DNA of 64,000 nt from Patescibacteria group bacterium (GTDB lineage Bacteria; Patescibacteriota; Patescibacteriia; Veblenbacterales; UBA10138): NCBI GenBank assembly GCA_041645215.1, contig JBAZQK010000005.1, positions 23,562 through 87,561 on the forward strand, given 5' to 3'. The position numbers and the translations under genes were made by a program. Of the stretch, positions 37,436-54,939 are shown in pieces. A model generated the notes under the pieces. It made no database searches, was not told the origin of the DNA, and worked only from the letters and a program-made list of their open reading frames with translations. How positions within the stretch are numbered: the stretch's first letter is position 1; every line of letters starts with the position of its first letter.

Positions 37436-37589
37436 AAAAATCTGCCAAGCATCGCGCTTGGCAAGTCAAAAATAAAGGGTTCATTCAGGTGTTAATTCTC
37501 ATACAGTTTTCTATAATTGATTACTGCGAGATTTAACACCTTATTTTTTTATTATTCTTATCTTTTTTCATTTTTCCAATCAAGCAATT

Positions 37590-37672
37590 ACTTCCATACT
37601 TCCCAGTATCAAAGTAATTGACGATTTTATAATTATTATGATTTATGCTAAGGTAACTTGTTAAATAAGACA
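37590..37672. repeat. Dispersed hairpin element copy (no GC insert)
   Basis: Near-identical to 35618..35700. Confidence 0.75.
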
Positions 37673-37875
37673 AAATAGCGTTTAGGGTGTATGATGAATT
37701 GTTAAATTAAAATAGACAGTGGATAATATAAATAGTCATTCTGAAGCTGATGTTCATCGGCTGAAGAATCTAAAGCGAATAATCAAAATGTTACAGATTT
37801 TTCGCTTCGCTCAAAATGACAATAAAAAAGTTTTTTAAAAAAGTTAATAATATCAAATAAATAAAAGGTGACAAA

Positions 37876-39462: not shown

Positions 39463-39597
39463 AATTTTCTGGTGTCATTCTGAAGCCCTCCTTAAGAGGG
39501 CTGAAGAATCTAATAAAATAATGGTTTAGGTGTTAGAGATGCAGTACTCATAATCAGTATTCGCTCTAACACCTTATTTTTTATCGCGAACTCTTTT

Positions 39598-39700
39598 TGA
39601 CAAATACTTCCATACCCACGCACCAGCCCGACCAAGTCGGGGCGGTGCGGGACTTCGCTTCCCAGTATCAAAGTATTGGTCGATTTTATAATTATAGATC
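39598..39700. repeat. Dispersed hairpin element copy carrying a GC-rich hairpin insert
   Basis: aaatacttccataCCCACGCACCAGCCCGACCAAGTCGGGGCGGTGCGGGACTTCGCttcccagtatcaaagtattggtcgattttataatta. Confidence 0.75.
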
Positions 39701-39998
39701 CAATATGCCATTGACAAGGGTATATTTTAGAACTATAGTAAAGTGTTAAATCTATAAAAATAGTTCATACTATTAAATAGTCCCGTTGTTGTTTTGAGAA
39801 GTTAGTCATTGTGTAGTTCTTGTCTGTCATTGCGAGGAAGTCGATTCATATCGGCTGACGCGGCAATCTCATTCTTCTTAAACCAATAATAAAGTGTCAT
39901 CCTGCTTGCCCCGCCTTGGCGGAGGAACAAAGTGAAGGATCTAACAAAGTTTTTTAAAAAAGTTAATAATATTATAAACAAACTATAAAGGTGATAAG

Positions 39999-41588
39999 AT
40001 GAAACGATTAATTATTTTAATCGTAATACTTGGTTTAGTTTATTCTGAACCGGTAATTGGTCAATGGACCAAAGTAACTCAAGGCCAGTTTAAGGGCCTT
40101 CAAGATGTATCGTTTGCCGACGCCAACAACGGCACTGCTGTTGCTGACCTTAGTACATACCGCACCACTGATGGCGGCCATACTTGGTCAGTTTATCCAG
40201 ACTGGAATATGATTTGGAAATCATACACCTATGTTCATTTCTTGGATAATCAAGTCGGTTGGATACTAGGCTATGACGCGGGTGAGCCAGGCTACTTTTT
40301 CAAAAGTATTGATGCTGGCAAAACTTGGCAGCAAGTTGCCAATCCGGTTAATGGATTAATGTACAAAATGTTCTGGTTAAATGCCACTGTTGGTTATGCT
40401 TTTGGCGCCACGCGCGGCATCACTTTCCGTGGCGATACTACCGGCACTAATGTCGGCTATGTCTGGAAAACAACTAATGCTGGTACCACCTGGACCGCGG
40501 CCGCAGTCGGTAAGCCTCGTTGGGGTTTTAATGATATGTGGATGCAGCCAAGCGGAAAGGGTATATTAATTGGCGGGTATGTTATGTATTCAACTTCTGA
40601 TTTTGGTAATTCCTGGCAAAAGAAAAATTTCCTTCTTCAACCTAATGAGATATTAAAAAAAATATATTTCTTTAATGAGAAAGATGGATTGATTTTTTCT
40701 TTTAAGGCAGAAAATGATGGTTCATATACTAGGTTATATAAGACAAATAACGGTGGTATAACCTGGCAATTGTGGTCGGAAATTAGTAAGTTTTATATAG
40801 CTTTTATGAGTCCGGTTTGTGTGGTTAATGTTAATAATATTGTACTATCAGGTATTTATTATAACTCAATAGATACATTAGATTATCATATAAAACGTTC
40901 TATTGACGGCGGTAAAACCTGGCAAACTGAATTAAGGAATTTTGATAGCAACGATTATATGCAGACCATCAAAAAGTTCGGTAATACTTATTGGGGTGTT
41001 GGCGCGCAAATTTGGCGGTGCGATAACGTACCTCCAATATTCACCATTAACATTGGCGATTCAATAGCTTATGTTGATTCGCAGTATACTCAAGCTTTAA
41101 AAGCTGTGGATGTAGATGGTGACCAATTAACATTTAGGTTGCTAGGTGCTCCTCAATTTCTGTCTGTGGCTGATAGTTATGTAAAAGGAATTCCCCGGTC
41201 TACTGACATTGGCAAATATGTTATAAAAGTTGAAGTGTCAGACGGCAAGGGTGGAAAAGATACTTTGTCTTACAACCTGAAAGTTGATTTCGCCACAGGT
41301 GTTGAGGACGAATTAAGTATTCCAACTAAGTTCTCCTTAAGCCAAAACTATCCTAATCCATTCAATCCAAGTACAACTATTAGTTATTCAGTTCCAACTT
41401 CCTGCCAAGTTCGTCTAACGGTTTTAGACATACTTGGCCGAGAAATCGTTACACTAGTTAACGAGTATAAAGTTGTTGGCACTTATGAAGTTAATTTCTC
41501 CGCCAACAATTTACCTAGCGGTATCTACATCTACCGCTTAATCGCTGGTCAGTTCTCACAAACCAAAAAAATGACACTCATAAAATAA
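39999..41588 (+). CDS. Secreted BNR/Ycf48-like repeat protein with T9SS C-terminal sorting domain (paralog 4)
   Basis: About 85% identical to paralog 3 by eye; same signal peptide and C-terminal NYPNPFNPSTTISYSVP...YIYRL. Confidence 0.7.
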   Translation: MKRLIILIVILGLVYSEPVIGQWTKVTQGQFKGLQDVSFADANNGTAVADLSTYRTTDGGHTWSVYPDWNMIWKSYTYVHFLDNQVGWILGYDAGEPGYFFKSIDAGKTWQQVANPVNGLMYKMFWLNATVGYAFGATRGITFRGDTTGTNVGYVWKTTNAGTTWTAAAVGKPRWGFNDMWMQPSGKGILIGGYVMYSTSDFGNSWQKKNFLLQPNEILKKIYFFNEKDGLIFSFKAENDGSYTRLYKTNNGGITWQLWSEISKFYIAFMSPVCVVNVNNIVLSGIYYNSIDTLDYHIKRSIDGGKTWQTELRNFDSNDYMQTIKKFGNTYWGVGAQIWRCDNVPPIFTINIGDSIAYVDSQYTQALKAVDVDGDQLTFRLLGAPQFLSVADSYVKGIPRSTDIGKYVIKVEVSDGKGGKDTLSYNLKVDFATGVEDELSIPTKFSLSQNYPNPFNPSTTISYSVPTSCQVRLTVLDILGREIVTLVNEYKVVGTYEVNFSANNLPSGIYIYRLIAGQFSQTKKMTLIK

Positions 41589-42023
41589 ATTATTTTTAAT
41601 AGGTGTCATTCTGACCCCGTCAGACGAGGGAAGAATCTAATAAAATATCAATATATCTTCGAGGAGGTCATTCAGTACTCTATAATCCAGTACTCCGGCC
41701 ACCTCCTTTTAATTTAATTTTAAATCAGCAACTGCTTCAGTGCTTCGCAGCGCTAAAGCAGTTGATAGGTAGGAGATGATAATTATAACTCCAACATTGA
41801 CAGGGTTTAGACGAATCTATAATTGATTCCTCGTCTAAATCCTTTTTAATTTGGCTGTAATAAGCCATTTTTGTTAAATATGCACAATTTGAATTTGCCA
41901 GATTTGTTTTTTTATTATAAATTAAATATGTGCTTGTGGGCGCAAGCCCCGTTCAGCTAAGGATTTCCTAAGCTGAAGGCAAGCACATAACAACACCCCG
42001 CCTACGCGAGGTGTTTTTATTGT

Positions 42024-42491
42024 TCATTCATCGGCAATATTGTCAGTATATAGCTTTTGTGGCTCGCCGTGTTTAAGTTTTGAATAAGGCATTACACTCC
42101 AGAAAGTAATATTACCATCGCCAACCCGCCTCAATATGACTCGAATTTTAATTTGTTTTTGTCCGACTATTGCCACCAAAGCCCAATACTGAACTTCTTT
42201 GGTAAGGGATAGCCCGTCTCGTTTAGATTTTTTACCAATAATGATAAGGCTTTTTCGGTATTCTTGTACCGTACCGGATTTTTCTATTACTTTAAAAGCC
42301 AGCGGCAATAAACTGAATTTTAGCAGTTGTTCTTTTTTGTTTCTTTCCCGACGAGCGGAAAATTGTAAATGATGCAAACCGTCGGAATTAAGAATTATAT
42401 TAGTTTCAAAATAAGGATTATAAATACTATTTCGTGATTGAAAGAAGTTTTTAGCAATCGTTTTCTTTTCATTGAAATACGTGATGTCCAT
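42024..42491 (-). CDS. Hypothetical protein (island gene)
   Basis: 155-aa ORF, AT-rich, flanked by about 50-bp direct repeats at 41818-41870 and 42548-42595. Confidence 0.4.
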   Translation of the reverse strand: MDITYFNEKKTIAKNFFQSRNSIYNPYFETNIILNSDGLHHLQFSARRERNKKEQLLKFSLLPLAFKVIEKSGTVQEYRKSLIIIGKKSKRDGLSLTKEVQYWALVAIVGQKQIKIRVILRRVGDGNITFWSVMPYSKLKHGEPQKLYTDNIADE

Positions 42492-42590
42492 ATTTTTAGT
42501 TTATCAATTTTATAACAAAATGCAATCTGGCGGCGACCCTGAAGATCTATAATCGATTTCTCGTCTAAACCCTATTTAATTTGGTTGTTA

Positions 42591-43061
42591 TTAATGTTTA
42601 TCAGAAAGGACAGTTAGAGCGTGAGCTATCAAAATCTCAATGACCTTTTTGTCCGAATTATAGCAAGCTATAAAATCATCAACCCGCATAAGACTTCGTT
42701 CAAACGCGTCTTGGCTGGGTATGAAGTCGCTCAATCGGCAATCGCGGGAGGTATAAAACAACATTTGTTTATCATTCCCCTCAAACTGCAGAGTGGCGAA
42801 GGGAATCGCCTGACCATCTATTATAACGCCTGATTCTTCTTTTACCTCTCGCTGTAAGGCCGAGAGTAGGTTAGTATCCCCTGGCTCAACATGTCCGCCT
42901 GGTACATCCCAGCCTCGCTCATTCCGAGTTGCAATAATCTGACCATCTATAAAACCAAGCAAAAATACTGCGCTTACCGATTGTTTTTGAGGCAGGTGGT
43001 TCTCATCAATATACTGGATATGCAATTGGCCCAGTGTAATTTTTTCCAGTGGAGTAATCAT
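42591..43061 (-). CDS. Nudix hydrolase
   Basis: Nudix box GGHVEPGDTNLLSALQREVKEESG. Confidence 0.75.
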   Translation of the reverse strand: MITPLEKITLGQLHIQYIDENHLPQKQSVSAVFLLGFIDGQIIATRNERGWDVPGGHVEPGDTNLLSALQREVKEESGVIIDGQAIPFATLQFEGNDKQMLFYTSRDCRLSDFIPSQDAFERSLMRVDDFIACYNSDKKVIEILIAHALTVLSDKH

Positions 43062-43199
43062 TATTTCTTTCCCATTTGATTTAGTTGATTCAAGTCCTTA
43101 TCTTATTTATCTACGATCAACTGTTATTATATTATCATTTTACTTTTTATTCAAAACCAGTCTTTTTACCCTATAGGTGTTTTTTAATTTAAACGAATT

Positions 43200-43275
43200 A
43201 GTGCAAATACTTCCATACTTCCCAGTATCAAAGTATTTGTCGATTTTATAATTGTCATGATTTATGCTTAAGAAT
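43200..43275. repeat. Dispersed hairpin element copy overlapping the 3' end of the Nudix gene
   Basis: gtgcaaatacttccatacttcccagtatcaaagtatttgtcgattttataattgtcatgatttatgcttaagaatc; supplies the last 8 codons and the stop of the 43255..43785 gene. Confidence 0.75.
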
Positions 43276-43785
43276 CTCTTTATGCATTTCTGTGGTAATT
43301 GAGTTGCACCAATTATCAGGATTATCGTTTTTGTCAGCCAGGTATTCATCAAAACTAAGCCACCGCGTAGCTTCAATTTCGCCATCTTTAAAATTAAATT
43401 GAGTTGATGCTTGGTTTAAATAAAAAGCCAACATAACAGTTAGGTGTTTGTAATTTTCGCTCCTTTCTTTCCGCCAACAGGCTAGCCGACCATCATTAAG
43501 GTTTAGTCCCAGTTCTTCGTTTATTTCCCTGGCAACATTTTGTTCAAAGTTTTCCCCCTTAGCCACGTGCCCGCCAAAGTAAGTTTGCCATTTATTGGGA
43601 TTACCCTCGTTGTTAGTGGAGCGCTTGGAACAGAGAATTTTTCCATCAGGATTAATTACCCAAATATTGGTAACAGCATGCCAAATTCGGTATGGTTTTT
43701 GGTGTGCCTCGGCGCGGGTATGAGGTTCTACTGGGTTGCCGTTTTCGTCAAAGCAGGCTAGTAGTTCTGACGTATCTTTGGACAT
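43255..43785 (-). CDS. Nudix hydrolase
   Basis: Nudix box GGHVAKGENFEQNVAREINEELG. Confidence 0.75.
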   Translation of the reverse strand: MSKDTSELLACFDENGNPVEPHTRAEAHQKPYRIWHAVTNIWVINPDGKILCSKRSTNNEGNPNKWQTYFGGHVAKGENFEQNVAREINEELGLNLNDGRLACWRKERSENYKHLTVMLAFYLNQASTQFNFKDGEIEATRWLSFDEYLADKNDNPDNWCNSITTEMHKEILKHKS

Positions 43786-44072
43786 GATGTTCTATTAGTA
43801 ATCAGATACTATGAATTATAACATGAAAATTACAAACCCAAATTCTGCGAGATGGTCATACAGTACTCTTATTTAGTACTCCGACCACCTCTTTTTAATT
43901 TACCCTTGGCCTTGATTGTTTTGGTATTTATGCTAAAGTAACATGTTAAGTAAGGCAAAACCATTTTTTAGGAGTATAGTAAAGTTAAATTAAAAAAGAG
44001 TGGTTGAAATGTAATTATAAAGAAATAAATAAAGCTTTTTAAAAATTTGTAAACAATCTCAAGGGGTATGTC

Positions 44073-45710
44073 ATGGAAAATAATAAGAAAACAGTAGTAT
44101 TAGTTACCCCACCGTCGCATACTCACCGTACAGCCGAAGAAAACCTGGGAATTGGCTATTTAGCCTCAAGTTTGAGAGCTAAAGGTTTCCCAGTGGTAAT
44201 TATAGATGCTTGGTTATATAACTATCCAATAAATATTCTAGTGGAGAAAATATTGACGATAAAAAATATTCTTTTTGTCGGCATTTCTTGTTATCGGTCA
44301 TCTTTGGATGACGTTGGAAATGTTATAAAGCAACTTAGACCGCTTGGTTATAATGGTGTTGTTACAGTTGGTGGATTTGGTCCAACTTTTCATGATTCCG
44401 ATTTTCTTTCTGTTGGTGTGGATGTTGTGTTAAAAGGAGAAGCGGAAGATTCAATAGTTGAATTAGCTAACTTATTAAATAATCGCAATTATCAAAAAAA
44501 CAACTTATCTAAAATATCTGGAGCATCTTGGTTAGGCCAAGCTGGACAAATCAACCGCACTAATCCCATTAAGGCTGATCATTTAGATTCCTTGTTCTTT
44601 CCAGCGAGAGATACTATGGCAATGAATTTACAAATGAAAAATCCAGCTCATCTTGTTACCAGCCGTGGTTGCACTTCTAATTGCTTGTTTTGTTCCATAA
44701 TCTCGTTTGAGAGACTGACAAAAAATAGGGTTACCTGGCGACAGCGCAGTATAGGCAACATAATTGAAGAGATAAAATATCTTTTTAACGAATATGGCAT
44801 ATCTACCTTTAAAATCGTGGACGATAGCTTTATAGAAGAAGGTAGAGATGTGGTTTGGACGGAAACTTTCCTTAATGAGTTGCGCAAAAATAACCTTAAA
44901 ATTCGATTCCGCACTCAGGTAAAAGCGAACGTTCTAACCAGTGAGTTAGTTGTTTGCTTAAAAGAAGCCGGTTGGTTTTCGACCAGTGTCGGTATTGAAA
45001 ATTTTGCTGAGACGGCCTTGCGTCGGATGAATAAGTCTTCTAGTCTTGAGCAAAATTTAAACGCCTTGGCTATGCTAGAAGAAAACGGTATTTACGTAGT
45101 CATGAATCTGATCCTTTTTGATCACAGCACGACTTGGTCCGAGTTAAAAGAAAATCTCTTTTACTTAAACAAGTTTAGCTGGCCGGTCATTAAGGGTTTA
45201 TTTACGGAAATGTACGCAGCCGAAGGTACGGCTTATTCCAGATTGTTGAAAAAAAGGGGCGAGCTGCTACCCAATAGTAATTTCATGAATAGGCAGTATA
45301 ATTTAGTCAATCATGATGTGGGGGTGATTTATACTTGTTTAAAGAAATGGCATAAGTCCCATTCAGCCGTATATGATCACGCTATAAACGTAATTGCCGC
45401 GCCTAAAAACTTGCCAGATTATGGTTATCAGAAGTATTTCAGGGTTTATCGACCGCTTTATGATTTGGATTTGCAGTTTTTTGCCAAGTTAATTAGTTTA
45501 CTAGAACAGTCTGCTCATAAACAACTGCCGCAAGCCCTGGAGTTTACTAATAACTTTATAACAAATACAAAACAAATTTTCGCCACAGTGGAAGGGGAAG
45601 TAACAGATTTAGATTTAGACTTTGGTATTTCTTACCAAGCCGAGTCTAATCCTTTTTTACACATCCCAGGAGATAGAAATGGAAAATCTCATAGAAAAAA
45701 TACCTCCTAA
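44073..45710 (+). CDS. B12-binding domain radical SAM protein
   Basis: N-terminal Rossmann-like B12-binding region (VVLVTPPS...GISCY...VTVGGFGPT); CxxxCxxC cluster motif TSRGCTSNCLFCS. Confidence 0.75.
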   Translation: MENNKKTVVLVTPPSHTHRTAEENLGIGYLASSLRAKGFPVVIIDAWLYNYPINILVEKILTIKNILFVGISCYRSSLDDVGNVIKQLRPLGYNGVVTVGGFGPTFHDSDFLSVGVDVVLKGEAEDSIVELANLLNNRNYQKNNLSKISGASWLGQAGQINRTNPIKADHLDSLFFPARDTMAMNLQMKNPAHLVTSRGCTSNCLFCSIISFERLTKNRVTWRQRSIGNIIEEIKYLFNEYGISTFKIVDDSFIEEGRDVVWTETFLNELRKNNLKIRFRTQVKANVLTSELVVCLKEAGWFSTSVGIENFAETALRRMNKSSSLEQNLNALAMLEENGIYVVMNLILFDHSTTWSELKENLFYLNKFSWPVIKGLFTEMYAAEGTAYSRLLKKRGELLPNSNFMNRQYNLVNHDVGVIYTCLKKWHKSHSAVYDHAINVIAAPKNLPDYGYQKYFRVYRPLYDLDLQFFAKLISLLEQSAHKQLPQALEFTNNFITNTKQIFATVEGEVTDLDLDFGISYQAESNPFLHIPGDRNGKSHRKNTS

Positions 45711-46833
45711 TGAGAAATTAAGCATAGAAAATATCGGCTGGACATTAGGTAACGATTGTCCTTATAGATGCAATCAATGTTACAGTCTTACTGCCAGGTT
45801 AAAAGGTAAAGACTTGGAAAGCAAACACGTTGATAGAATAGTTGACCAATTAAGCATAAACAAGATAAAGACAGTTAATTTAGGTGGCAATGAGCCAATA
45901 TTCACTAACGGTTTGGATGTTAAAAAGACTAAATTGCCTTATATTATTAAGTCTTTAGTAGATAAGAACATCTTGGTCGGCTTAACCACGGCTGGTGTGA
46001 CACTTCAACACCTGATCAGGTATTATGGCGACTACTTTTTACTGCTTAATGATGTTGATGTAAGTATTGATAGTCCTTTTAAATGGGAACATGATAAAAA
46101 CAGGGGAGCTCAGTTGTTTGATTCGGCTATATGGGTCGCCAATATGTGTCAGGCTCAGGGGATTGAGCACACTTTGGTAATGTGCGGTATGAATTGGAAT
46201 CTCTCAGAAAGTCATTTGCAAGGCTTGATAAATTTAGCCAAAGCAACGGGTAGTAACTTGAGAATAAACTACTTGAAACCGATTGAAGAAAAACATTTGG
46301 ATATTTTTCCAAGTGCGCGACAATATTATGAATCGGCACAATACTTGATTGACAGATGTAGTATAGTTGATTTGGGTGAGCCATTACTGTCCTCGGTTTA
46401 TTCTGATTTGGAAAAAGGGTGTCCTTGCGGTACGAAATCTTTTAGAATTCATTCCATCACCCCTGATGGCAAGGTGCCGGTTAGCCCCTGCGTTTATATG
46501 CACGATTATCGGTATGGGGACTTACTTAAAGACGATTTGATAGATATCATCAACTCAAATCAATTTAAAGCCTTTCGTCAAAGACGAAGTAACCCAGCAA
46601 ACATTCCAGGATGTAATTGCTGTGAACACTTAAATAGTTGTCGTGGTGGTTGCGCTGCCCGTTCCAGTTTATTTCATAAAAATAAAAATATATTAGAAGT
46701 GAAAGATCCTTATTGTTTAAAGGATTATACTGAAACAATTGTGGGTTCGTCACTTATTTCTGATGTTAATTTTGGGCAAAAATCATTGGTACATAGAGAT
46801 TATTTGTGTACCCTTATCTTATCGCCTAAGTGA
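45679..46833 (+). CDS. Radical SAM protein with SPASM C-terminal domain (maturase-like)
   Basis: CPYRCNQC radical SAM motif; C-terminal Cys-rich SPASM-like region (CPCGTKSF...CVYMHD...GCNCCEHLNSCRGGCAARS); start 6 nt after GGAGA and overlapping the upstream gene by about 30 nt. Confidence 0.75.
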   Translation: MENLIEKIPPNEKLSIENIGWTLGNDCPYRCNQCYSLTARLKGKDLESKHVDRIVDQLSINKIKTVNLGGNEPIFTNGLDVKKTKLPYIIKSLVDKNILVGLTTAGVTLQHLIRYYGDYFLLLNDVDVSIDSPFKWEHDKNRGAQLFDSAIWVANMCQAQGIEHTLVMCGMNWNLSESHLQGLINLAKATGSNLRINYLKPIEEKHLDIFPSARQYYESAQYLIDRCSIVDLGEPLLSSVYSDLEKGCPCGTKSFRIHSITPDGKVPVSPCVYMHDYRYGDLLKDDLIDIINSNQFKAFRQRRSNPANIPGCNCCEHLNSCRGGCAARSSLFHKNKNILEVKDPYCLKDYTETIVGSSLISDVNFGQKSLVHRDYLCTLILSPK

Positions 46834-46899
46834 TAAAACAATGTTATAATTAAATGAGGAAGTTTAAGGCTTCCTCATTATTATTTTCTCATTAAATTT

Positions 46900-47244
46900 A
46901 TGGTAACCCAGGCCAAAAATTTTCTTAATAAAATTGTTAAAGTGAAGATTGATAGGCCATTAGGTGCCAAGCACCCTAAACATGATTTTATTTATGAAGT
47001 TAATTACGGGTTTGTGCCGGGTACTTTGAGTTCTGACCAAAAAGAATTGGATGCTTATGTTTTAGGAGTGGATGGGCCATTGGAAGATTTTGAGGGTAGA
47101 TGTATAGCAGTTATTCATCGTACCAACGATGATGATGATAAATTGGTAGTTATAGCGCCAAATTCTCCAAATATGTCAGACGAAGAAATAATGAAAAGGG
47201 TGAATTTTCAAGAGCAGTTTTTTAAGTCTCATATTATTAGGTAA
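46900..47244 (+). CDS. Short inorganic-pyrophosphatase-like protein
   Basis: NYGFVPGT and LDAYVLGVDGP resemble the family I PPase NYGFIPxT / DGDPLDVLV motifs; only 114 aa. Confidence 0.45.
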   Translation: MVTQAKNFLNKIVKVKIDRPLGAKHPKHDFIYEVNYGFVPGTLSSDQKELDAYVLGVDGPLEDFEGRCIAVIHRTNDDDDKLVVIAPNSPNMSDEEIMKRVNFQEQFFKSHIIR

Positions 47245-47307
47245 TTGTTCTTTGTAATAAAAATAAATGGCCTCCATTAAATGGCGGCCATTTTATTAAA
47301 TATGATT

Positions 47308-48204
47308 TTATTTAATCATGAAATCGGGTAGATATTCGAAGTGAGTACTTTTGTTAGTAACATGTTTCTTTTGTTCACGGCAGTTACATTTTATGCCTTT
47401 GATTTTAGAAAGTTTGGGTAGAGCGGCAAGAAATATATCAAACGTCTTTTTTCTGCCAGTAATGATGTTGTTATCAATACATGTGCGAGCCAAAGGATCT
47501 TGCGCTAAAAAACGTGCTCTAAGTTTTCTATCATCAATCGTAGCCGCTAATCCAACATAATGACATCCAGCTTCTCTGGCTAGTGTTGCCTCTATGTCAG
47601 CGGTTTGACCGACAACATCCCATCTGTTTTTTGCATAATAATTTAATTCAGCTTCTGTTTCAATGCGAGGATAACCATGAAAGCAGACGTATATACCTTT
47701 TTTGTGCACTTTAAAGGGTATAAGCTTTGTTGATTGTATTAAGACATCCGTGGCTTCAGCACAAAATGGTTTAAGCATATCAACGTTTCTAAAGCCAGTG
47801 TCCATGTTTCTTGTTTGATCATAACCACCCATGCCGACTAAATCGTTTAGGATGTATACATCGCCAGCCTGGCTGTTGGGCTTGATTGAACCACAAGTAA
47901 ACGTTCCAACAATCGTTTCTATACCCATACTTGAAAGTGTTTCTTGTGTAAGGAGGAAATTAATTTTTTGTGACGTAGATCTAATTCGATCAAATCTTCC
48001 ATATATGATAATAAATGGAATACCCGCATGTTTAGTTAAAAAACAGCGATTGTGGATGCCGATTTTTGTTTCTACTATGATGTGATTATACGGGTTCTTA
48101 TTTAAGAACCAGTCAGGTCTAGCAATAATAGCGACCTTAGTTTTGAATTCCTTGCTGGCTTGGGCAAGTGACTCAAAATTTACGTAAAGACTTTGACTTA
48201 TCAT
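47308..48204 (-). CDS. PNP/MTAP-family nucleoside phosphorylase with Cys-containing C-terminal extension
   Basis: GTFTCGS and VCFHGYPRIETEAE resemble MTAP/PNP phosphate- and ribose-binding regions; extra C-terminal tail ...KCNCREQKKH. Confidence 0.6.
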   Translation of the reverse strand: MISQSLYVNFESLAQASKEFKTKVAIIARPDWFLNKNPYNHIIVETKIGIHNRCFLTKHAGIPFIIIYGRFDRIRSTSQKINFLLTQETLSSMGIETIVGTFTCGSIKPNSQAGDVYILNDLVGMGGYDQTRNMDTGFRNVDMLKPFCAEATDVLIQSTKLIPFKVHKKGIYVCFHGYPRIETEAELNYYAKNRWDVVGQTADIEATLAREAGCHYVGLAATIDDRKLRARFLAQDPLARTCIDNNIITGRKKTFDIFLAALPKLSKIKGIKCNCREQKKHVTNKSTHFEYLPDFMIK

Positions 48205-48205
48205 A

Positions 48206-48832
48206 TTAACTCCTTTGTATAGGTATTACTTGAGAAATTATTGACAAGCATTCATTGATTGAGTTTTTTTCTGTATCCAGCATTAAGTAATTTCTATGCA
48301 ATCTAGTTACATGATAGATCAATCGTTCTTGCATAGTTGAAATCAAATCTGGTTTATTGAAAAACAAATGATCAATTTCAGTACTATTGCTGTTATCTTT
48401 AATTCTTTTGAGTATAATGTCTGGATTGGCTTGTAAAATAATAGTGAGATGAGGATTGATCAATAAGTTTCTTCGCAAATATTCATCAAGTAATAAAGAA
48501 TCAGCGTTTAGGTTGTGAATTTCTCTGAAGGTTGTTATTGATAAATCATATCTTTCTTGTACAACTGTTTCTCCTCTAGCAATACTCGGCAGAATAGAAT
48601 CACTTGTATCAAAAATGCAATCAGCCCAGTAGAAGGCAGTTGAATAACCAAGATCAGTTATTTCTTTTGATTTGACTTCGCTGGAAAAAGGGGAATTGCT
48701 CAAAGCGCCTCGTTTGTGTCGGATAATTTGTTTGCTATTGTTTCTTAATAGTTTAACTAACTCAATAGCCAGAGTCGTTTTTCCGCATTTAGGAGGAGAC
48801 TCAAAGACTATGAATAATCCTGGATTTTTCAT
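48206..48832 (-). CDS. Thymidylate-kinase-like P-loop (d)NMP kinase
   Basis: Walker A ESPPKCGKTT and DRY-like VVQERYDLS motif; 1-bp gap from the phosphorylase gene suggests an operon. Confidence 0.55.
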   Translation of the reverse strand: MKNPGLFIVFESPPKCGKTTLAIELVKLLRNNSKQIIRHKRGALSNSPFSSEVKSKEITDLGYSTAFYWADCIFDTSDSILPSIARGETVVQERYDLSITTFREIHNLNADSLLLDEYLRRNLLINPHLTIILQANPDIILKRIKDNSNSTEIDHLFFNKPDLISTMQERLIYHVTRLHRNYLMLDTEKNSINECLSIISQVIPIQRS

Positions 48833-49032
48833 GTCATTACCTCTTATTTAGTTTGTAATATACAATTTCAATTTAATTGATTTTGTTATTGTGTTTAGTT
48901 TTTGTTACTTTTTGTTTATCATATCTTAGTATTATTTGAGGTAAAGTCAAGCCTTGCTTTTTTTCTGTTAATTTGCTAGAATATTTTGAATAAATAAAAC
49001 TAAAAAAGAATATTAAAAATAGAGGTATAAAA

Positions 49033-50295
49033 ATGAAAGAAAAAATAACTTATGGTCTTGATTTTGGAACTTCCAATACGGCCATTGTGGCTAATTATAA
49101 GGGAATTCTTAGACCAATCCCCTTGTCTTCTGATGGCAGTTTGATAACTCCAACCGTATTGTATTTTCCGCCGGATGGCAGAGTGTACAAATTCGGAGAT
49201 GAGGCCGTTAAAGAATATCTCGCCCGAAAAATGAAAGGCAGATTTATGCAGTCGCTTAAATCGTTTTTACCAAGTGAGTCTTTTTCTGGAACTTATATCT
49301 CCGGTTTTGGGCACAGGTATCTGCATGACTTGATTGCCCTTATATTTTCCGAGGTTAAAAAAAGAGCCGACATTCTGATTGGTGAGAACATAAGATCGGT
49401 AGTTATCGGTATACCAGCTAAATTTGTTAATGAATTAGACAACTCTTCAAGAAATTTAGCAGAAGAAAGATTGCGCATGGCCGCTGATATGGTTGGTTTT
49501 AAAGAAGTTAATTTTATTTTAGAGCCAATAGCCGCGGCTTATTACTACGAAACTTTATTAAATTCATCGGAAACTGTTTTGGTTGGTGATTTTGGCGGCG
49601 GTACTACAGATTTCACTATTATGAATCTTTCTCCAAATGGTAATAAAAAAATTGACCGCAAGGACGATATTTTGGCAACCAGCGGTATACCCATAGCCGG
49701 GAATAACTTCACTTCGGACTTAATGCGCAACAAGTTGCTTAAATACTTTGGCCAAGGTAGCAAATTTAAGTCTTGGGACAAGTGGTTAGAAATGCCCGTT
49801 CATATTTTACAAATGATATGTAAATGGGAAAATTTAGCCTTTATGAGGACTCCGGAATACCGCAAGACCATAAATATGCTTCTCAATAAAACAGATGATT
49901 ACGATGGTATATCAAGATTGCACACTCTAATAGAAGATAATCTTGGTTATACATTGTTCCAATCTATAGAAAGAGCCAAAATTGAGTTGTCGGGAAATGT
50001 TGTATCAAAGATATTGTTTTCGGAAAGCAACATTAAAATTGACGAGGAGGTGTCTAGAGAGGAGTATGATTATTTGATAGGTTATATGTACGAAAAGATA
50101 GATGAGACTATACAAGAAATGTTAAAGGTCTCATCAAAAAATCCGAAAGATATCGATGCGGTATTCTTAACTGGCGGAACTTCTTTTACTCCACTGATAA
50201 AAGATTATTTTACTAAGAAGTTTGGTAAAAATAAGATTAAAAGTAAAGATAATTTTACCGATGTTGCCAACGGTTTGGCCGCTTCGATGGTATGA
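49033..50295 (+). CDS. Hsp70-family ATPase, nucleotide-binding domain only (YegD-like)
   Basis: Phosphate 1 GLDFGTSNTAIV, phosphate 2 VLVGDFGGGTTDFTI, and adenosine motif VFLTGGTSFTPLIKDYF; no substrate-binding domain. Confidence 0.7.
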   Translation: MKEKITYGLDFGTSNTAIVANYKGILRPIPLSSDGSLITPTVLYFPPDGRVYKFGDEAVKEYLARKMKGRFMQSLKSFLPSESFSGTYISGFGHRYLHDLIALIFSEVKKRADILIGENIRSVVIGIPAKFVNELDNSSRNLAEERLRMAADMVGFKEVNFILEPIAAAYYYETLLNSSETVLVGDFGGGTTDFTIMNLSPNGNKKIDRKDDILATSGIPIAGNNFTSDLMRNKLLKYFGQGSKFKSWDKWLEMPVHILQMICKWENLAFMRTPEYRKTINMLLNKTDDYDGISRLHTLIEDNLGYTLFQSIERAKIELSGNVVSKILFSESNIKIDEEVSREEYDYLIGYMYEKIDETIQEMLKVSSKNPKDIDAVFLTGGTSFTPLIKDYFTKKFGKNKIKSKDNFTDVANGLAASMV

Positions 50296-50361
50296 AATGA
50301 TTTCTAAAAATTGAACGGGACTTGAGAAATTGATTTTAATCAACTCAAGTCCCTATTTATT

Positions 50362-50525
50362 TGCCTGCGATTAGTGCAAATACTTCCATACCCACACACC
50401 AGTCCCGTCTGACGGGACCAGCCCGACCAAGTCGGAGCGGTGCGGCCTGCCCGCCTTGGGCGAGGACTTCGCTTCCCAATATCAAAGTATTGGTCGTTTT
50501 TAATTATCACAATTTATACTTAAGA
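50362..50525. repeat. Dispersed hairpin element copy with a longer nested GC-rich insert
   Basis: gtgcaaatacttccataCCCACACACCAGTCCCGTCTGACGGGACCAGCCCGACCAAGTCGGAGCGGTGCGGCCTGCCCGCCTTGGGCGAGGACTTCGCttcccaatatcaaagtattggtcg... Confidence 0.75.
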
Positions 50526-50639
50526 ATTTCCCTATATGTTTCCGCAGTAAAGGGTTGTCGCAGGACAACCCTTATTAATTGATTGCATGCATTTGACATA
50601 TTTTTTGTATTGTATTAGGATATAGAAAAATAGTTCTTT

Positions 50640-50970
50640 GTAAGAAATCTAAAAATCAGTGACCAGGAATAGTAGGCTATTTAAGTCTAGCCGAGAGAGG
50701 GGAGAATAGTGTGAACTCCCTCTAGACCAATAGTTCGAATGGCCCTGCGAGATGTAAGCCGAAATTGGCTGACTTTAGCCAAAAGTAGTCTTTACCGGGA
50801 TTTACCCGCCGTAACCATGGGTTAGAACGTGTTGCCCCAAGCAAAGCGTTCTGAAAGCGTTCTCCGCCTCGGCGGAGAGAATAAAGGTGGTACCGCGAAG
50901 GTTGATATGACCTCCGTCCTTTAAACAGCATAGCTTGACTATGTTGTTTGAGGGATGGGGGTTTTTTGTT
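50640..50970 (+). promoter_or_regulatory. Candidate T-box riboswitch leader (tRNA-sensing antitermination element)
   Basis: T-box signature AAAGGTGGTACCGCG at 50882-50896; terminator-like hairpin aaacagcatag..ctatgttgttt plus T-run at 50920-50966; Stem I-like distal region with CTAG..GAGAGA..AGTGTGA..CTAG at 50686-50724; TTGACA at 50593; GC hairpin 50553-50577 upstream. Confidence 0.5.
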
Positions 50971-51037
50971 TAGCTCTTTAACAACTATATAGAATGTAAA
51001 AACAAATTATAAAAATAAAATAATAAGAGGTGTAGTT

Positions 51038-53593
51038 ATGCAAGCAAAAACATTTGAAGTATTAACTGTGTCTTTAGACCAATGTTTAATTGAGGGCCCT
51101 AGTCGTGTTGGCATTAAGGCTTGGCGTCTAGCGCAGTTAGACAGTTATGGTTATAAGGTTCCACCAGCCTTGATTATCCCGGCTGATGAGGTTGTTCGTA
51201 TTTGGAAAGATGGGCAGCTTATAATATCTGACGAAATCGTAAGTGATTTGTGGCATTACAGTTGTAAAAGATTAGAGGCAGGTAGTTTAATTGTTCGTAG
51301 TAGTGGACAAGAGGACGGTGAAAAATTATCTTTCGCTGGGCAGTTTAAATCTATAACTGATGTAAATTCAGTGGAGGAATTTAAGGAAGCTCTGCGTAGT
51401 TGTATAGCTTCTTCAGAGTCTGGTTCAATACAGAATTATAGTAAGGTTATGAATGGCAAAAATTACAGCGAGGGATATTCAGTAATGATAATGCCCCAAA
51501 GAGATTGTGTTTTTTCAGGGATTTTATTTTCGGAGGTGCATGTCAATGGCAACGAATCTGATCTTATCGTTTTGCAAGTTACACATGGTAATAACTTTGG
51601 TTTAACTTCAGGTTCAGAGTCTGGAGATATTCTGTATATTGACAAGTTAGATGGTTCAATAATATGCAGTATACCGCAAAAAAGAAAAGTTGCCGGATTT
51701 GATTCCGTAACCGTTGAGAGACTGTATAATATGGCGTTGGCTCTTGAAACTAAGTTTGGTTTTTCAGTTGATTTAGAGTGGGGGGTAATGCTTGATGGAA
51801 CCATTGAACTTTTTCAAGTGCGGCCAATTACTACCCTTAATAGCCCAGATTCATCCAATGTTCGTTTAAGGAGCATAATACAGACAGATTCCTTAATGAA
51901 AGCATCTTTGCTTAGTTTAAAAGACAGGCATATATCATTGGATGTTAATTACTGGAGTGACCAGAATATCGCTGAATTGATTACAGACCAACCTTCACGT
52001 ATGGCATTTGGTATATTTACTTACATATTTGCTCACGGTGACGGTGCAATTAAAATTGGCCGTAATCAAATGGGGTATGATATAGGCGATGAATTGACAG
52101 ACGGTTTTTTTGAGCTTATAGGTGGCCGACCGCGTTGTAGTATCATACACGACGCTCTAACCTATAGGGTGAAAGGAATACCACTGGACGATTATGTTAG
52201 TGGATTTATATCTCGTTATTTAGATAAAATTAAAAATAACGTACAATACGCTAACTATCCAGAGGTGGTGTTATATGAACAAAATCCAGCGCAAGATTCG
52301 CTTATTGAAATGTTTGGTAGTGAAAAGGGAGAGCAGTATGCTAAATATTACCAAAATTTTTTCGATAGAGTTAATCAGCTTGAGAAAACAGTGGTAGAGG
52401 AATTTAAATTATCTTTTGAACCAAGTTTTATTAAGTATATTGAAGGTAAAAGAGATGATATCGCCGGATTAGACTCTTCAGATTTGGGAGAGCTAGTGAA
52501 CTATGCGCAATCAATACTGGATCATTTGAGAACAGTAAGTTGTGTAATGTTTGTAAAGATAGCAAGGCTAGGATTCTTTGCTTATGCCCGTTTACGGGAG
52601 CTACTCAATGGCGAATTTGGGGAAAACAAAGGCAGACATCTTCTCGATCAAATGACCGCCGGACTGGAAGACGACTCATCAATGTTATTTAACGTTAGAC
52701 TTGCCCAGTTAAGAGATGAAATTGTCGACATCGAGTCGGTACTGTTAGAATTCGGACATTTGGGACCAAACGAATTGGAGATAGCCAATCCTAGATATCA
52801 TAATCAAGTTGATATACTTAAGAAATTATCTCAAAGGATTCAAGGAAATCCAGCTAACGAATTACATAATCGTGCGGTCGAGGCCGATAAGGTAACTAAT
52901 GAGGTCGCAAGCTCGTTGGATGAGTCTTTGGCCGCTAAACTGCGCAAGGATGTTAAAATTGCTAGACGTTATCTTGCTCTTCGCGAACGTGCTAAATATT
53001 ACTTTCTCATGGAATATGATTGTTTGCGTCAGGCATTGGAAAAAATTTCTTCAGAACTAAAATTGGAGCATAGGTTAATATTCGAACTGGATCCGCGTGA
53101 GTTGTCTCTCTTGGTTAGTGATATTCCCCTGGCATTATTGCTGATGAGAAAGCGCTACCAAGAAAGGGATATCCTGGCTAATATTCATATACCTCCAGTG
53201 ATAACACTTAATAACTTGGGAGACATCGGCCAAGATTCTTATGATCCTACTGAGAAAATCATGATGGGTATAGGTATTACGCCAATAGTAACGACCGGTG
53301 AAGCCATAGTTGTTTTAGATCCTAACGATACGGAAGGCCTATCAAGATTAAAGCCAGGTATGGTGCTTGTTGCCAAGACTACCGACCCTACTTGGGCACC
53401 GATTATTGCTGCTGTAGGCGGTAATGGTGCTTTGGTGACTGAAATAGGCGGACCGTTGGCTCATGGGGCAATAGTGGCACGTGATCTCGGTATAGCTTGT
53501 GTACAAAATGTTCCCATGGTAACCAAAAGAATACAAAATGGAAATATTGTTAAAGTTGATGGTAAAAATGGAATAGTTACAGTTTTATCTTAA
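51038..53593 (+). CDS. PEP-utilising dikinase-like enzyme with rifampin-phosphotransferase-like domain order (N-terminal ATP-grasp/PPDK_N, C-terminal swivel phosphohistidine domain)
   Basis: N-terminal RVGIKAWRLAQL (PPDK_N VGGK-like); C-terminal PEP-utilising mobile domain GEAIVVLDPNDTEGL...GGPLAHGAIVARDLGIACV; no TIM-barrel PEP-binding domain. Confidence 0.7.
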   Translation: MQAKTFEVLTVSLDQCLIEGPSRVGIKAWRLAQLDSYGYKVPPALIIPADEVVRIWKDGQLIISDEIVSDLWHYSCKRLEAGSLIVRSSGQEDGEKLSFAGQFKSITDVNSVEEFKEALRSCIASSESGSIQNYSKVMNGKNYSEGYSVMIMPQRDCVFSGILFSEVHVNGNESDLIVLQVTHGNNFGLTSGSESGDILYIDKLDGSIICSIPQKRKVAGFDSVTVERLYNMALALETKFGFSVDLEWGVMLDGTIELFQVRPITTLNSPDSSNVRLRSIIQTDSLMKASLLSLKDRHISLDVNYWSDQNIAELITDQPSRMAFGIFTYIFAHGDGAIKIGRNQMGYDIGDELTDGFFELIGGRPRCSIIHDALTYRVKGIPLDDYVSGFISRYLDKIKNNVQYANYPEVVLYEQNPAQDSLIEMFGSEKGEQYAKYYQNFFDRVNQLEKTVVEEFKLSFEPSFIKYIEGKRDDIAGLDSSDLGELVNYAQSILDHLRTVSCVMFVKIARLGFFAYARLRELLNGEFGENKGRHLLDQMTAGLEDDSSMLFNVRLAQLRDEIVDIESVLLEFGHLGPNELEIANPRYHNQVDILKKLSQRIQGNPANELHNRAVEADKVTNEVASSLDESLAAKLRKDVKIARRYLALRERAKYYFLMEYDCLRQALEKISSELKLEHRLIFELDPRELSLLVSDIPLALLLMRKRYQERDILANIHIPPVITLNNLGDIGQDSYDPTEKIMMGIGITPIVTTGEAIVVLDPNDTEGLSRLKPGMVLVAKTTDPTWAPIIAAVGGNGALVTEIGGPLAHGAIVARDLGIACVQNVPMVTKRIQNGNIVKVDGKNGIVTVLS

Positions 53594-53687
53594 AAACTAA
53601 AATAATCTTGTAAAGGGAGTCTATTTATGGACTCCCTATTTTTATTTTCAATTATTTGTTAATATTACTTTATAATTAAAGTAGTTT

Positions 53688-54380
53688 ATGGATTCCAATA
53701 GCATACAATTTTTCTTTATTCGTCATGGTCAATTGGTTGAACCTTACTTGAATCATTTAGTTATGGATTATTCTACTTTAAGTGATTTAGCTACGAGCGC
53801 ACTTGACCCTGGTATTAATAAGAACGCCATTGATTTATTTAATAGACAAACGAGCGGGCTTGATTTTTCGGCTGTTTCACGAATCTATTATAATAATTCC
53901 GGTTTTCAATCACGCCGTTCATTGGAATCGGCTAAAATTATGGCCGAAGTTTTTTTAAGGCGCTATAAAAAAGAAATAACTCCGGTTGGTTTGTCGGAAC
54001 TTAAAGAGGTTCGTTTTGATGTTCGGCAGCTAGTGAGTAAAGATGATTTTAAAATCAATGGTATGCCAGCCATTAGGACAGCTTTGTATAGTTCTTTTGT
54101 TAACGGCGGTAGCGCCGAGTCAATAGTTGAGCTAGAAAAGCGAATTGGCGTTATTAACAGCGTCGCGGCCAGGCGTGCTCTTAAAAGAGAAAGCGTATTG
54201 TTTGTTACTCATGATTTTTTTATGCGGGTGTTGGAGGTTTATATAAATCGTGCCGATAGGTTGCAAGGAGTAACGATAAATGATTTTGAGAAAACCTCGC
54301 TTAATTCGTATTTTTCTGGTTTTTTAACCACTACTGAATTTAATAGTCTTACGCGCTGGGGTTCAGATATATTTAAATAA
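53688..54380 (+). CDS. Histidine phosphatase superfamily (PGAM-like) protein
   Basis: N-terminal FIRHGQ (RHG catalytic motif) and distal VTHDFFMRV. Confidence 0.55.
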   Translation: MDSNSIQFFFIRHGQLVEPYLNHLVMDYSTLSDLATSALDPGINKNAIDLFNRQTSGLDFSAVSRIYYNNSGFQSRRSLESAKIMAEVFLRRYKKEITPVGLSELKEVRFDVRQLVSKDDFKINGMPAIRTALYSSFVNGGSAESIVELEKRIGVINSVAARRALKRESVLFVTHDFFMRVLEVYINRADRLQGVTINDFEKTSLNSYFSGFLTTTEFNSLTRWGSDIFK

Positions 54381-54431
54381 ACAATATAAACCTGAAAAAT
54401 ACCAAGGCGGTATTTTTAACAGCGGAGCTAT

Positions 54432-54848
54432 ATGAGCACAAAATGTAAATATCAAATTACCGTTGGGGGCGTACTGTTAAAACAGAATAAGGTTTTATTG
54501 CTACAGCGGGCAGCCAGCGAAAGAGTGTTGCCAAATTTGTGGGAACTGCCGTCGGGCAAAAAAGAAACGACAGAAACTATATGGCAAGCATTGGTTAGAG
54601 AGTTTAAGGAAGAAACCGGCTTAAAGGTAAAAATAGTTAAACCGATTTCAGTTTTTGATTATCGGCTTATTAAAGATAGGCAAAAGGTTTATACTACGCA
54701 AATTAATTTTTTAGTTAAATACACTGGCCGTAGGTTAGAAATAAAACTAAGTCCGGAACACAGGGCTTATAAATGGGTAGGTAGGAAGGATTTGAAGAAA
54801 CTAAAAGTTTCCAGGGAAATAAGTAGGGTTGTAAATTCCGTTTTGTGA
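54432..54848 (+). CDS. Nudix hydrolase
   Basis: Nudix box SGKKETTETIWQALVREFKEETGL. Confidence 0.75.
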   Translation: MSTKCKYQITVGGVLLKQNKVLLLQRAASERVLPNLWELPSGKKETTETIWQALVREFKEETGLKVKIVKPISVFDYRLIKDRQKVYTTQINFLVKYTGRRLEIKLSPEHRAYKWVGRKDLKKLKVSREISRVVNSVL

Positions 54849-54939
54849 AAATTCTCCCCAATGTTTAGCCGGGGGAGTTTTTAGTTTAGCTTAACCAGCG
54901 CTATTTGATAAATTATGGTAAGCCATTTATAGTGTTAAT

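Follow-up and report, generated by a model that had tools for sequence, protein, structure and literature searches.

We analysed a 64,000-nt window from the genome of a Patescibacteria group bacterium (contig JBAZQK010000005.1 of assembly GCA_041645215.1) and found that its stretch from 41.6 to 54.9 kb consists of three unrelated modules and is not a single unit. The central module, a conserved and horizontally mobile cassette built around two radical S-adenosylmethionine (SAM) enzymes, most likely makes, from an ordinary adenine (deoxy)nucleotide, an altered nucleotide or nucleoside with antimetabolite activity, a reading to which we assign a probability of about 0.48. The cassette would then be a variant of the B12-radical-SAM tailoring of nucleotides known from oxetanocin and albucidin. 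The original prediction, made from the DNA alone, had described the whole stretch as one coherent, acquired cassette; a mobile, nucleotide-centred cassette does exist, but it spans 6.2 kb (44073-50295) and not 13 kb. The three modules are as follows.

Module 1, 44073-50295: radical-SAM cassette, conserved and horizontally mobile
Module 2, 50593-54848 (+): T-box, dikinase, RHG-motif protein and Nudix gene, conserved in candidate phyla radiation (CPR) bacteria
Module 3, 42024-43785 (-): a 155-aa gene of unknown kind and two Nudix genes, conserved with neither other module

Proteins encoded in the window were scanned against the Pfam, NCBIfam, PADLOC and PHROG family libraries, and the Pfam and NCBIfam searches of the proteins from 42 to 55 kb bore out all of the genes and domains that had been read from the sequence. 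The cassette comprises six genes.

44073-45710 (+): B12-binding radical SAM enzyme, 545 aa (Pfam PF02310 B12-binding and PF04055 Radical_SAM), the anchor of the cassette
45679-46833 (+): radical SAM/SPASM enzyme, 384 aa (Pfam Radical_SAM and SPASM)
46900-47244 (+): mini-pyrophosphatase (mini-PPase), a truncated family-I pyrophosphatase-like protein, 114 aa (Pfam Pyrophosphatase, 34.5 bits)
47308-48204 (-): PNP/MTAP-like protein, 298 aa (Pfam PNP_UDP_1; NCBIfam MTAP, 80 bits, cutoff 275)
48206-48832 (-): dTMP-kinase-like P-loop kinase, 208 aa (Pfam Thymidylate_kin; TIGR00041, 54 bits, cutoff 83)
49033-50295 (+): YegD-like Hsp70 ATPase, nucleotide-binding domain only, 420 aa (PRK11678, 211 bits, 2.5e-62; Pfam HSP70)

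It had been stated earlier that no described system has this composition, and a full-text literature search, with most subscription journals outside its reach, likewise gave no account of the cassette. The cassette is apparently undescribed, though a prior description is possible.

Conservation and distribution of the cassette

Conserved synteny of the radical SAM pair with the PNP-like, kinase and Hsp70-like genes, which the original prediction had proposed to look for in other genomes, was found in distant taxa. Eighty genome loci and the contigs of close and distant relatives were collected, and all proteins of the stretch were searched for within ±10 kb of the B12 enzyme gene; co-occurrence was counted over 85 loci and gene architecture over 82 non-duplicate loci. 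The SPASM enzyme was encoded near the B12 gene in 78/85 loci, the mini-PPase in 58/85, the PNP-like protein in 28/85, the dTMP-kinase-like kinase in 22/85 by phmmer or 36/85 by clustering, and the Hsp70-like protein in 20/85. None of the 85 loci contained the dikinase, the RHG-motif protein, the 155-aa protein or proB. On the basis of these counts, the functional unit was delimited as 44073-50295. The two closest relatives, whose B12 enzymes are 70% and 52% identical to that of the window, keep the order B12, SPASM, mini-PPase; X, kinase; Hsp70-like, where the X slot holds an amidohydrolase and not the PNP-like protein, and their flanks are unrelated to those of the window.

Across the 82 architectures, a P-loop kinase of any type was present in 59, and exactly one of a PNP-like protein, an amidohydrolase or an adenosine-deaminase-like protein in 42, with two of these never found together. 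The best models for the cassette-linked amidohydrolases were 5'-deoxyadenosine deaminase, methylthioadenosine (MTA)/S-adenosylhomocysteine deaminase and aminofutalosine deaminase. Hsp70-like (16/82) and HelD-like (31/82) neighbours were mutually exclusive. LysR regulators were found in 18 cassette loci, and guanylate-kinase-like, nucleoside-deoxyribosyltransferase-like, Nudix, His_Phos_1 and SAM methyltransferase proteins were further recurrent neighbours. Carriers of the cassette include Saccharibacteria, Parcubacteria, Paceibacterota, a Woesearchaeote, gut Bacilli/Mollicutes, Clostridia, gut Alphaproteobacteria, Bradyrhizobium, Streptomyces/Nocardia and Muribaculaceae, and the layouts fall into the following types.

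CPR bacteria and the Woesearchaeote: Hsp70-like; B12, SPASM, mini-PPase; PNP or amidohydrolase, kinase
Gut Alphaproteobacteria: Nudix, B12, SPASM, adenosine-deaminase-like; kinase; Hsp70-like
Gut Bacilli/Mollicutes: LysR, SPASM-type enzyme, PNP, (deoxyribosyltransferase-like), P-loop protein, B12, mini-PPase, HelD-like
Gut Clostridia: His-phosphatase, SPASM, B12, methyltransferase, unknown, kinase, unknown; guanylate-kinase-like, mini-PPase; HelD-like or recombinase, often with an integrase at the left end
Actinomycetes and plasmids: radical-SAM pair with phosphotransferases, AMP-binding/NRPS-like enzymes (NRPS, nonribosomal peptide synthetase) and exporters

Two Bradyrhizobium loci (L005 and L012) carry only the B12/SPASM pair amid transposases, LRR/NEL effector-like genes and nitrogenase-like genes, a context that looks like a symbiosis island.

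Horizontal mobility

Only the 6.2-kb cassette shows the marks of horizontal acquisition, namely a patchy distribution, incongruence with phylogeny, and mobility genes carried by relatives. Nearest-neighbour identities cut across taxonomy and track habitat: the proteins of the Woesearchaeote and Paceibacterota are 66% identical, those of Muribaculaceae and Mollicutes 59%, and those of Bradyrhizobium and Streptomyces 56%. In the 70%-identical relative, with the amidohydrolase in the PNP slot, a transposase lies directly 5' of the cassette, and integrases or recombinases were present in 10 of the 82 cassette loci. Members of the cassette are also encoded on a linear plasmid of Streptomyces clavuligerus and on a conjugative Enterococcus plasmid. 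Plasmid copies adjoin either ATP-binding cassette (ABC) transporters or a major facilitator superfamily (MFS) transporter together with an NRPS-like adenylation protein. No mobility genes were found inside the window's own 41.6-54.9 kb stretch. A phage origin, or a role in phage DNA hypermodification, was rejected since neither 50,697 phage records nor IMG/VR contained a member, IMG/VR giving only partial matches of <=33% identity; the PHROG search of the proteins from the stretch likewise gave no specific match.

The two radical SAM enzymes

A search at E<1e-20 gave the B12 enzyme 536 homologs, most of which share 36-52% identity with it over the full length; the CxxxCxxC motif (C200/C204/C207 in the window enzyme) is invariant in the family. 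When the family profile was compared with the Protein Data Bank (PDB), OxsB scored 128.6 bits and the next best entry 65 bits. An AlphaFold2 model of the window enzyme (pLDDT 86.5) was searched with Foldseek and again returned OxsB at the top (E 9e-23, TM 0.69-0.73), with TsrM (E 8.5e-18), MgmA, TokK and CysS ranked lower. The alignment begins at residue 137 of OxsB, and members of the family are 520-545 aa long, compared with 744 aa for OxsB. Given how distant the resemblance is, it was taken as a lead on the substrate class and not as membership in the OxsB family. Neither radical SAM enzyme of the cassette has a family-level model in Pfam or NCBIfam.

The start of the SPASM gene overlaps the end of the B12 gene by 32 nt, and a B12-SPASM fusion protein (P0036) was also found. 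The SPASM enzyme has 687 homologs at E<1e-40 that are 52-60% identical, and it contains the three radical-SAM cysteines and nine further invariant cysteines. Its fold is generic, with SuiB, anSME, CteB, the nucleoside enzyme BlsE and PqqE matching about equally in Foldseek. The two genes overlap here, are fused elsewhere and co-occur in 78/85 loci, which shows that the two enzymes are tightly coupled.

Accessory proteins of the cassette

The mini-PPase family retains the equivalents of Y51, Y55, D65, D70, D102 and K104 of the E. coli pyrophosphatase and is missing both termini. It is widespread and often fused to other domains, and was therefore regarded as a general helper module; the fusion partners (P0195-P0287) are P-loop kinase, Nudix (three cases), Pol-beta nucleotidyltransferase, GT2, GNAT, APH and aminotransferase domains.

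The PNP-like gene lies 1 nt downstream of the kinase gene, from which the Hsp70-like gene is divergent. The best PDB matches of the PNP-like protein are MTA phosphorylases, and the Cys-rich tail with which it had been credited is merely one C-x-C pair. The cassette-linked PNP-like proteins form their own clade, matching one another at 1e-28 to 1e-78 compared with 1e-22 to the MTAP model. As a hint only, and judged against what we take to be the human MTAP sequence, the adenine-binding Asp is kept in this clade and the phosphate-site residues have diverged; the cassette-linked proteins may not be phosphorylases.

Hsp70-like genes were found in 16-20 cassette loci, from CPR bacteria, the Woesearchaeote and Proteobacteria. 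A role for the Hsp70-like ATPase as a reductive corrinoid activator, by analogy with activators of the actin/Hsp70 fold, is bare speculation, as its sequence contains only one cysteine and lacks an Fe-S motif. Neighbours annotated as UvrD in other lineages are HelD-like RNA-polymerase recycling ATPases (392 bits against the HelD_BACSU model, cutoff 419). Their genes stand immediately beside the cassette in 31 Firmicute loci in two gene orders (e.g. 11992-14166 in L015 and 15819-17987 in L041), and a second HelD-like open reading frame (ORF) lies on the other side of the cassette in L028, L035 and L046. HelD/HelR proteins recycle RNA polymerase and confer self-protection and rifamycin resistance. 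If the product of the cassette were to stall RNA polymerase, a HelD-like gene beside it would be the expected arrangement, and this recurrent neighbour suggests RNA polymerase as a testable target.

Proposed function and alternative readings

A pathway can be proposed in which the dTMP-kinase-like P-loop kinase would set the phosphorylation state of the substrate, after which the B12-radical-SAM enzyme, which carries the cofactor motifs and has OxsB as its closest solved relative, would carry out a radical rearrangement or a C-methylation on the sugar or base. The SPASM enzyme could add a second radical step, like AlsA after AlsB. The mini-PPase would then trim phosphates or remove pyrophosphate, for which Nudix or histidine phosphatases may substitute in other lineages. 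The MTAP-like protein, elsewhere an amidohydrolase or an adenosine-deaminase-like protein, might clear inhibitory 5'-deoxyadenosine, or process or detoxify an adenine-nucleoside product. Finally, the Hsp70-like ATPase of CPR bacteria and Proteobacteria, or the HelD-like ATPase of Firmicutes, could serve as an accessory or self-protection factor. The proposal of an antimetabolite draws on the HelD-like rescue factors, exporters and LysR regulators found in various lineages. The two roles that the original prediction had put forward, biosynthesis of a modified nucleoside or nucleotide and an antiviral nucleotide system, are also the two that the evidence favours.

Several observations weigh against an antimetabolite pathway. 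The likeness to OxsB is distant, with ~18% identity in the structural alignment and a single-sequence E of 1e-9, and the N-terminal domain of OxsB is missing from the B12 enzyme family. AlsA and AlsB were likened to the cassette enzymes through their published descriptions. No HD-domain cluster, as would be expected for an HD phosphohydrolase, was found among the recurrent neighbours. The radical-SAM pair stands alone in 13/82 loci. With 953 representatives at E<1e-10 and fusions to many kinds of enzyme, the mini-PPase is a promiscuous domain, and in the region of residues 45-50 the window protein reads SDQKELD where 43/45 family members have DGEELD; it is unique in having K where the family has E at a conserved acidic metal-ligand position, and may be catalytically altered. 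The adenine-nucleoside enzymes may only recycle radical-SAM by-products, in which case they say nothing firm about the substrate. Adjacency of HelD-like genes could reflect lineage synteny in Firmicutes. For every member of the cassette, substrate and product are putative assignments made from sequence, and gene calls are crude in the high-GC loci.

Should the antimetabolite reading hold, the 536 B12 and 687 SPASM homologs, which fall into hundreds of protein clusters, would represent a large untapped family of nucleotide-modifying radical enzymes; to our knowledge, OxsB and AlsB are the only B12-radical-SAM nucleotide enzymes that have been studied. CPR bacteria and Woesearchaeote episymbionts would gain a concrete chemical weapon or shield. 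Natural nucleoside analogues are proven antiviral, anticancer and herbicidal leads. A more far-reaching version, in which an inter-domain-mobile pathway makes a new class of polymerase-poisoning nucleotide or nucleoside beyond the oxetanocin, albucidin and viperin products, CPR/DPANN symbionts and gut bacteria use it against hosts, competitors or phages, and the HelD-like and Hsp70-like proteins are immunity factors, strikes us as somewhat unlikely.

The same chemistry might instead serve anti-phage defence, with a chain-terminating or polymerase-poisoning nucleotide made in the infected cell, as by viperins with dedicated kinases. The B12 enzymes of all architecture classes match the PADLOC candidate PDC-M51A (50-77 bits), and the cassette kinases score 28-58 bits with PDC-M51B and 18-35 bits with VakA, the viperin-associated kinase; the M51 scores cover four architecture classes. 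The pairing of a radical SAM enzyme with a nucleoside-monophosphate kinase mirrors pVip systems. The cassette is also patchy and transfer-prone, with copies near integrases and, on one plasmid, DNA methyltransferases. However, the PADLOC scores are well under family level, members of the B12 enzyme family scoring 400-550 bits against the window enzyme, and thus indicate relatedness and not membership in PDC-M51. No infection sensor or effector was recognisable in the cassette, and the LysR regulators (18 loci), the MFS/ABC exporters and the NRPS-like enzyme better suit a regulated, exported metabolite. A defence function is accordingly held to be unlikely.

We give still less weight to a housekeeping or salvage pathway of reduced genomes, which would make or repair a cofactor or a modified RNA base and in which the kinase, phosphatase and nucleoside enzymes would perform ordinary salvage. 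The cassette is common in CPR bacteria, DPANN archaea and metabolically minimal Mollicutes of the gut, by-product salvage is the classic task of MTAP-like and deaminase enzymes, and the mini-PPase is a general accessory domain. Yet the distribution is sporadic in every phylum and tracks habitat and not phylogeny, the accessory genes are freely swapped between lineages, copies occur on plasmids, beside transposases and integrases and in large-genome actinomycetes, and the two radical SAM enzymes are without the family-level models that NCBIfam or Pfam would provide.

That the whole 41.6-54.9 kb is one acquired island, in which the Nudix enzymes, the radical-SAM cassette and the T-box dikinase/phosphatase cooperate, is very unlikely. 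GC content at third codon positions (GC3) is uniformly low across 42-54.9 kb, the stretch contains copies of one intergenic repeat, and Nudix and histidine-phosphatase genes accompany the cassette in other lineages; low GC, however, also covers the BNR genes outside it, which the repeats precede as well, and the closest cassette relatives have other flanks. In the albucidin region, a thymidylate kinase and a pyruvate,phosphate dikinase are listed at a distance of four to five genes from albA and albB, which encode the two radical SAM enzymes (PMC7074753, Table 1); this prompted consideration of the dikinase as a part of the cassette. This arrangement was seen in 0/85 loci, so it may be coincidence, and the candidate was rejected; the earlier grouping of the dikinase and phosphatase with the cassette was abandoned, as the dikinase, the RHG-motif protein and the 155-aa gene are absent from all 85 and the dikinase module stands alone, with its own T-box, in many CPR genomes.

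Maturation of a ribosomally synthesized and post-translationally modified peptide (RiPP) by the radical-SAM pair is scarcely credible: B12-radical-SAM C-methyltransferases and SPASM enzymes are typical for RiPP tailoring, NCBIfam gave matches to TIGR03975, a model for RiPP C-methyltransferases (79 bits), and to models for mycofactocin and sactipeptide maturases, and SuiB, CteB and PqqE are among the top Foldseek matches of the SPASM model, but all of these RiPP models score far under their curated cutoffs, anSME and the nucleoside enzyme BlsE match about equally, the recurrent neighbours are nucleotide enzymes and not proteases or precursor peptides, and clustering of 722 small intergenic ORFs gave no candidate precursor peptide common beyond 3-4 near-identical loci. 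In the SPASM enzyme, the first strand begins at residue 18 and the cluster cysteines lie at residues 27-34; with the radical-SAM core thus starting at residue 18-27, there is no room for an N-terminal peptide-recognition (RiPP recognition element, RRE) domain, and none was found on the enzyme itself, no search having been made for a separate RRE protein.

A T-box-controlled dikinase module

The second module is a conserved one, independent of the radical-SAM cassette, in which a Trp T-box is predicted to control a small-molecule dikinase.

50593-50968 (+): promoter-like site, Trp T-box leader and terminator (RF00230)
51038-53593 (+): Rph-like phosphoenolpyruvate (PEP)/ATP dikinase, 851 aa (Pfam PPDK_N and C-terminal PEP-utilizers)
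53688-54380 (+): RHG-motif phosphatase-like protein, 230 aa (N-terminal RHG motif; no Pfam match)
54432-54848 (+): Nudix protein, 138 aa (Pfam NUDIX)

The T-box that had been read in the sequence is real: RF00230 matched at 50650-50924 over the full model (1-219) with 91.3 bits (curated threshold 93) and E 2.9e-19, and orthologous leaders in L111, L113 and L118 score above the threshold at 99.8-100.3 bits. A promoter-like site (TTGACA-17-TAGGAT, 50593-50621) lies 5' of the T-box, and a 20-pair terminator (50914-50958) follows it. The window leader, which is complete in its T-box elements, contains GGUGGUACCGCG, and its specifier was read by eye as GAA-UGG-C. Among the 24 dikinase loci with enough upstream sequence, a T-box stands directly 5' of the dikinase in 15, namely the window, L109-L111 and 11/20 further metagenomic loci; the loci besides the window are L109-L111, L113, L117, L118, L120-L122, L127, L130, L134, L139 and L141. 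Two leader types were distinguished, one with a canonical Stem I (91-100 bits) and one with a short Stem I (36-55 bits), and the specifier, again read by eye, is UGG in both (GAA-UGG-A/C in the canonical type and AGUGG(A/C) in the short one). In L121, a second strong T-box (528-763, 112 bits) stands before another gene, ~1 kb 5' of the T-box that belongs to the dikinase; by eye, the specifier of this second T-box seems to differ (GAA-CGA-G).

The dikinase has 74 homologs at E<1e-30, and all named ones are from CPR bacteria. A phosphatase (weak His_Phos_1 or LMWPc match) follows the dikinase in L109 and L111, that of L109 being the counterpart of the RHG-motif protein with the weak His_Phos_1 match, and a phosphatase is fused to the dikinase in P0187. 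A gene for a synthetase of the tryptophanyl-/tyrosyl-tRNA synthetase (TrpRS/TyrRS) class lies a few kb 5' in two dikinase loci. Speculatively, induction by uncharged tRNA-Trp suggests a role in Trp supply or the inactivation of a TrpRS inhibitor. A T-box sensing proline for the neighbouring proBCA genes was rejected, as the specifier is UGG, the dikinase is followed by a terminator-like site, and a separate promoter-like site belongs to proB.

Composition, repeats and neighbouring genes

Module 3 consists of the gene for the 155-aa protein (42024-42491), which had zero matches in any family library, and two Nudix genes (42591-43061 and 43255-43785, both on the minus strand); with 54432-54848 (+) these are the three Nudix genes that had been claimed. 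The module 3 genes are not beside the cassette in its closest relatives, L002 and L112, and lack any conserved partner.

The stretch had been described as AT-rich and bracketed by dispersed repeats. Mean GC3 is 0.333 for its 12 genes compared with 0.449 for the 35 other genes of the window (Mann-Whitney p = 1.4e-4), and 0.32 for the cassette (44073-50295) compared with 0.45. The low GC relative to the core genes was thus upheld, but the four BNR paralogs to the left have a GC3 of 0.373, nearly as low (p = 0.06); because these genes are also low in GC, 41.6 kb is no left compositional border, and the tract runs from ~33 kb to 55 kb, with a sharp rise at proB as its right edge. Two genes far from the stretch (49-549 and 20356-21141) have even lower GC3 values (0.198 and 0.191), so compositional patchiness is general to the contig.

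The dispersed repeats exist, but they neither bracket nor delimit the 13-kb stretch. They share an intergenic module of ~110 nt whose 22-mer core is present in five copies in the window (0 expected by chance), all on the plus strand.

35643, 37599, 39658, 43218 and 50472 (+): starts of the 22-mer core
35628-35707, 37584-37663, 39650-39688, 43203-43282 and 50464-50502 (+): repeat copies (families D10, D13 and D15, and alignment)
35628-35736, 37584-37692 and 50380-50502 (+): wider extent of the intergenic module at three of these copies
43926-43977 (+): related piece

The copies precede BNR paralogs 2-4, the B12 operon (second half only) and the T-box, so that 3/5 lie outside the stretch, 5' of BNR paralogs. 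The copies at 39.6 kb and 50.4 kb have a GC-rich insertion, and the Nudix gene at 43255-43785 separates the two repeat halves within the stretch. The repeat may serve several genes as a common promoter or regulatory sequence; readings of it as an island border or as a miniature, transposon-like element were rejected, as the copies are co-directional and most lie 5' of BNR paralogs.

At 33786-41588, four tandem paralogs of ~530-560 aa combine BNR/sortilin repeats, an Ig-like domain and a type IX secretion system (T9SS) C-terminal sorting tail. Their DNA identity is 69-94% in parts, and their GC3 is 0.35-0.39. T9SS tails are unexpected in a genome labelled Patescibacteria; a Por_Secre_tail protein is also encoded near the cassette in L002. 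Two tRNA-Ser genes with the anticodons GCU and UGA lie on the minus strand at 21439-21530 and 22004-22091, ~470 nt apart.

Comparison with known systems

On the path to oxetanocin A, OxsB carries out a ring contraction on the sugar of 2'-dATP, dADP or dAMP (PMC13331322, PMC7074753). The cassette shares with OxsB/OxsA of a Bacillus megaterium plasmid the cobalamin radical SAM enzyme as key catalyst, a putative phosphohydrolase as co-worker, and plasmid-borne or mobile genes; the HD-domain protein OxsA is replaced by the mini-PPase, the second radical SAM enzyme, the kinase and the adenine-nucleoside enzyme. As is typical for the OxsB type, the window enzyme joins a cobalamin-binding Rossmann domain to a downstream radical SAM core that has the CxxxCxxC motif, but it has neither the four-domain architecture of that type nor an orthologue-level identity. 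AlsB performs the ring contraction on 2'-dAMP, after which a second radical SAM enzyme, AlsA, leads to albucidin (PMC13331322, PMC7074753). With AlsB/AlsA (albB/albA) of Streptomyces albus subsp. chlorinus, the cassette would share the logic of two successive radical SAM enzymes, which in albucidin synthesis precede a non-specific dephosphorylation (PMC13331322, PMC7074753). The four domains of OxsB are reported for AlsB as well, whereas the window family has three, and AlsA is annotated as biotin-synthase-like, whereas the partner in the window is a full SPASM enzyme.

The pairing of a radical SAM enzyme with a dTMP/CMP-kinase-like kinase is shared with pVip/VakA and PDC-M51, at the remote level of 18-77 bits. 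The cassette differs from these systems in having two radical SAM enzymes, one of them B12-dependent, and pyrophosphatase-like and nucleoside-enzyme genes; the viperin model NF038283 scores 23 bits (cutoff 180) and the PADLOC pVip model 30 bits, covering the N-terminal radical-SAM core only. Compared with HelD/HelR self-protection, the window is without HelD and has the Hsp70-like ATPase instead, and a link between HelD and the product is conjectural.

The dikinase shares with Rph the order of an ATP-grasp domain, Rph_4th (PF27448, present in the homologs) and a C-terminal swivel His domain; over the full architecture, the Listeria Rph entries are the PDB structures that it matches best. It scores far under the equivalog cutoffs (NF041857, 121 bits, cutoff 999; NF000283, 78 bits, cutoff 1700) and is for this reason not an Rph orthologue. 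T-boxes normally control aminoacyl-tRNA synthetases and amino-acid synthesis or transport, and we know of no T-box regulon with a PEP-utilising dikinase; the literature search, within the same limits on subscription journals, gave no description of one. If the T-box of the window does act on the dikinase, a Trp T-box over a dikinase and a phosphatase would extend the T-box regulon beyond amino-acid supply, and it offers a direct handle on an uncharacterised, CPR-specific dikinase family.

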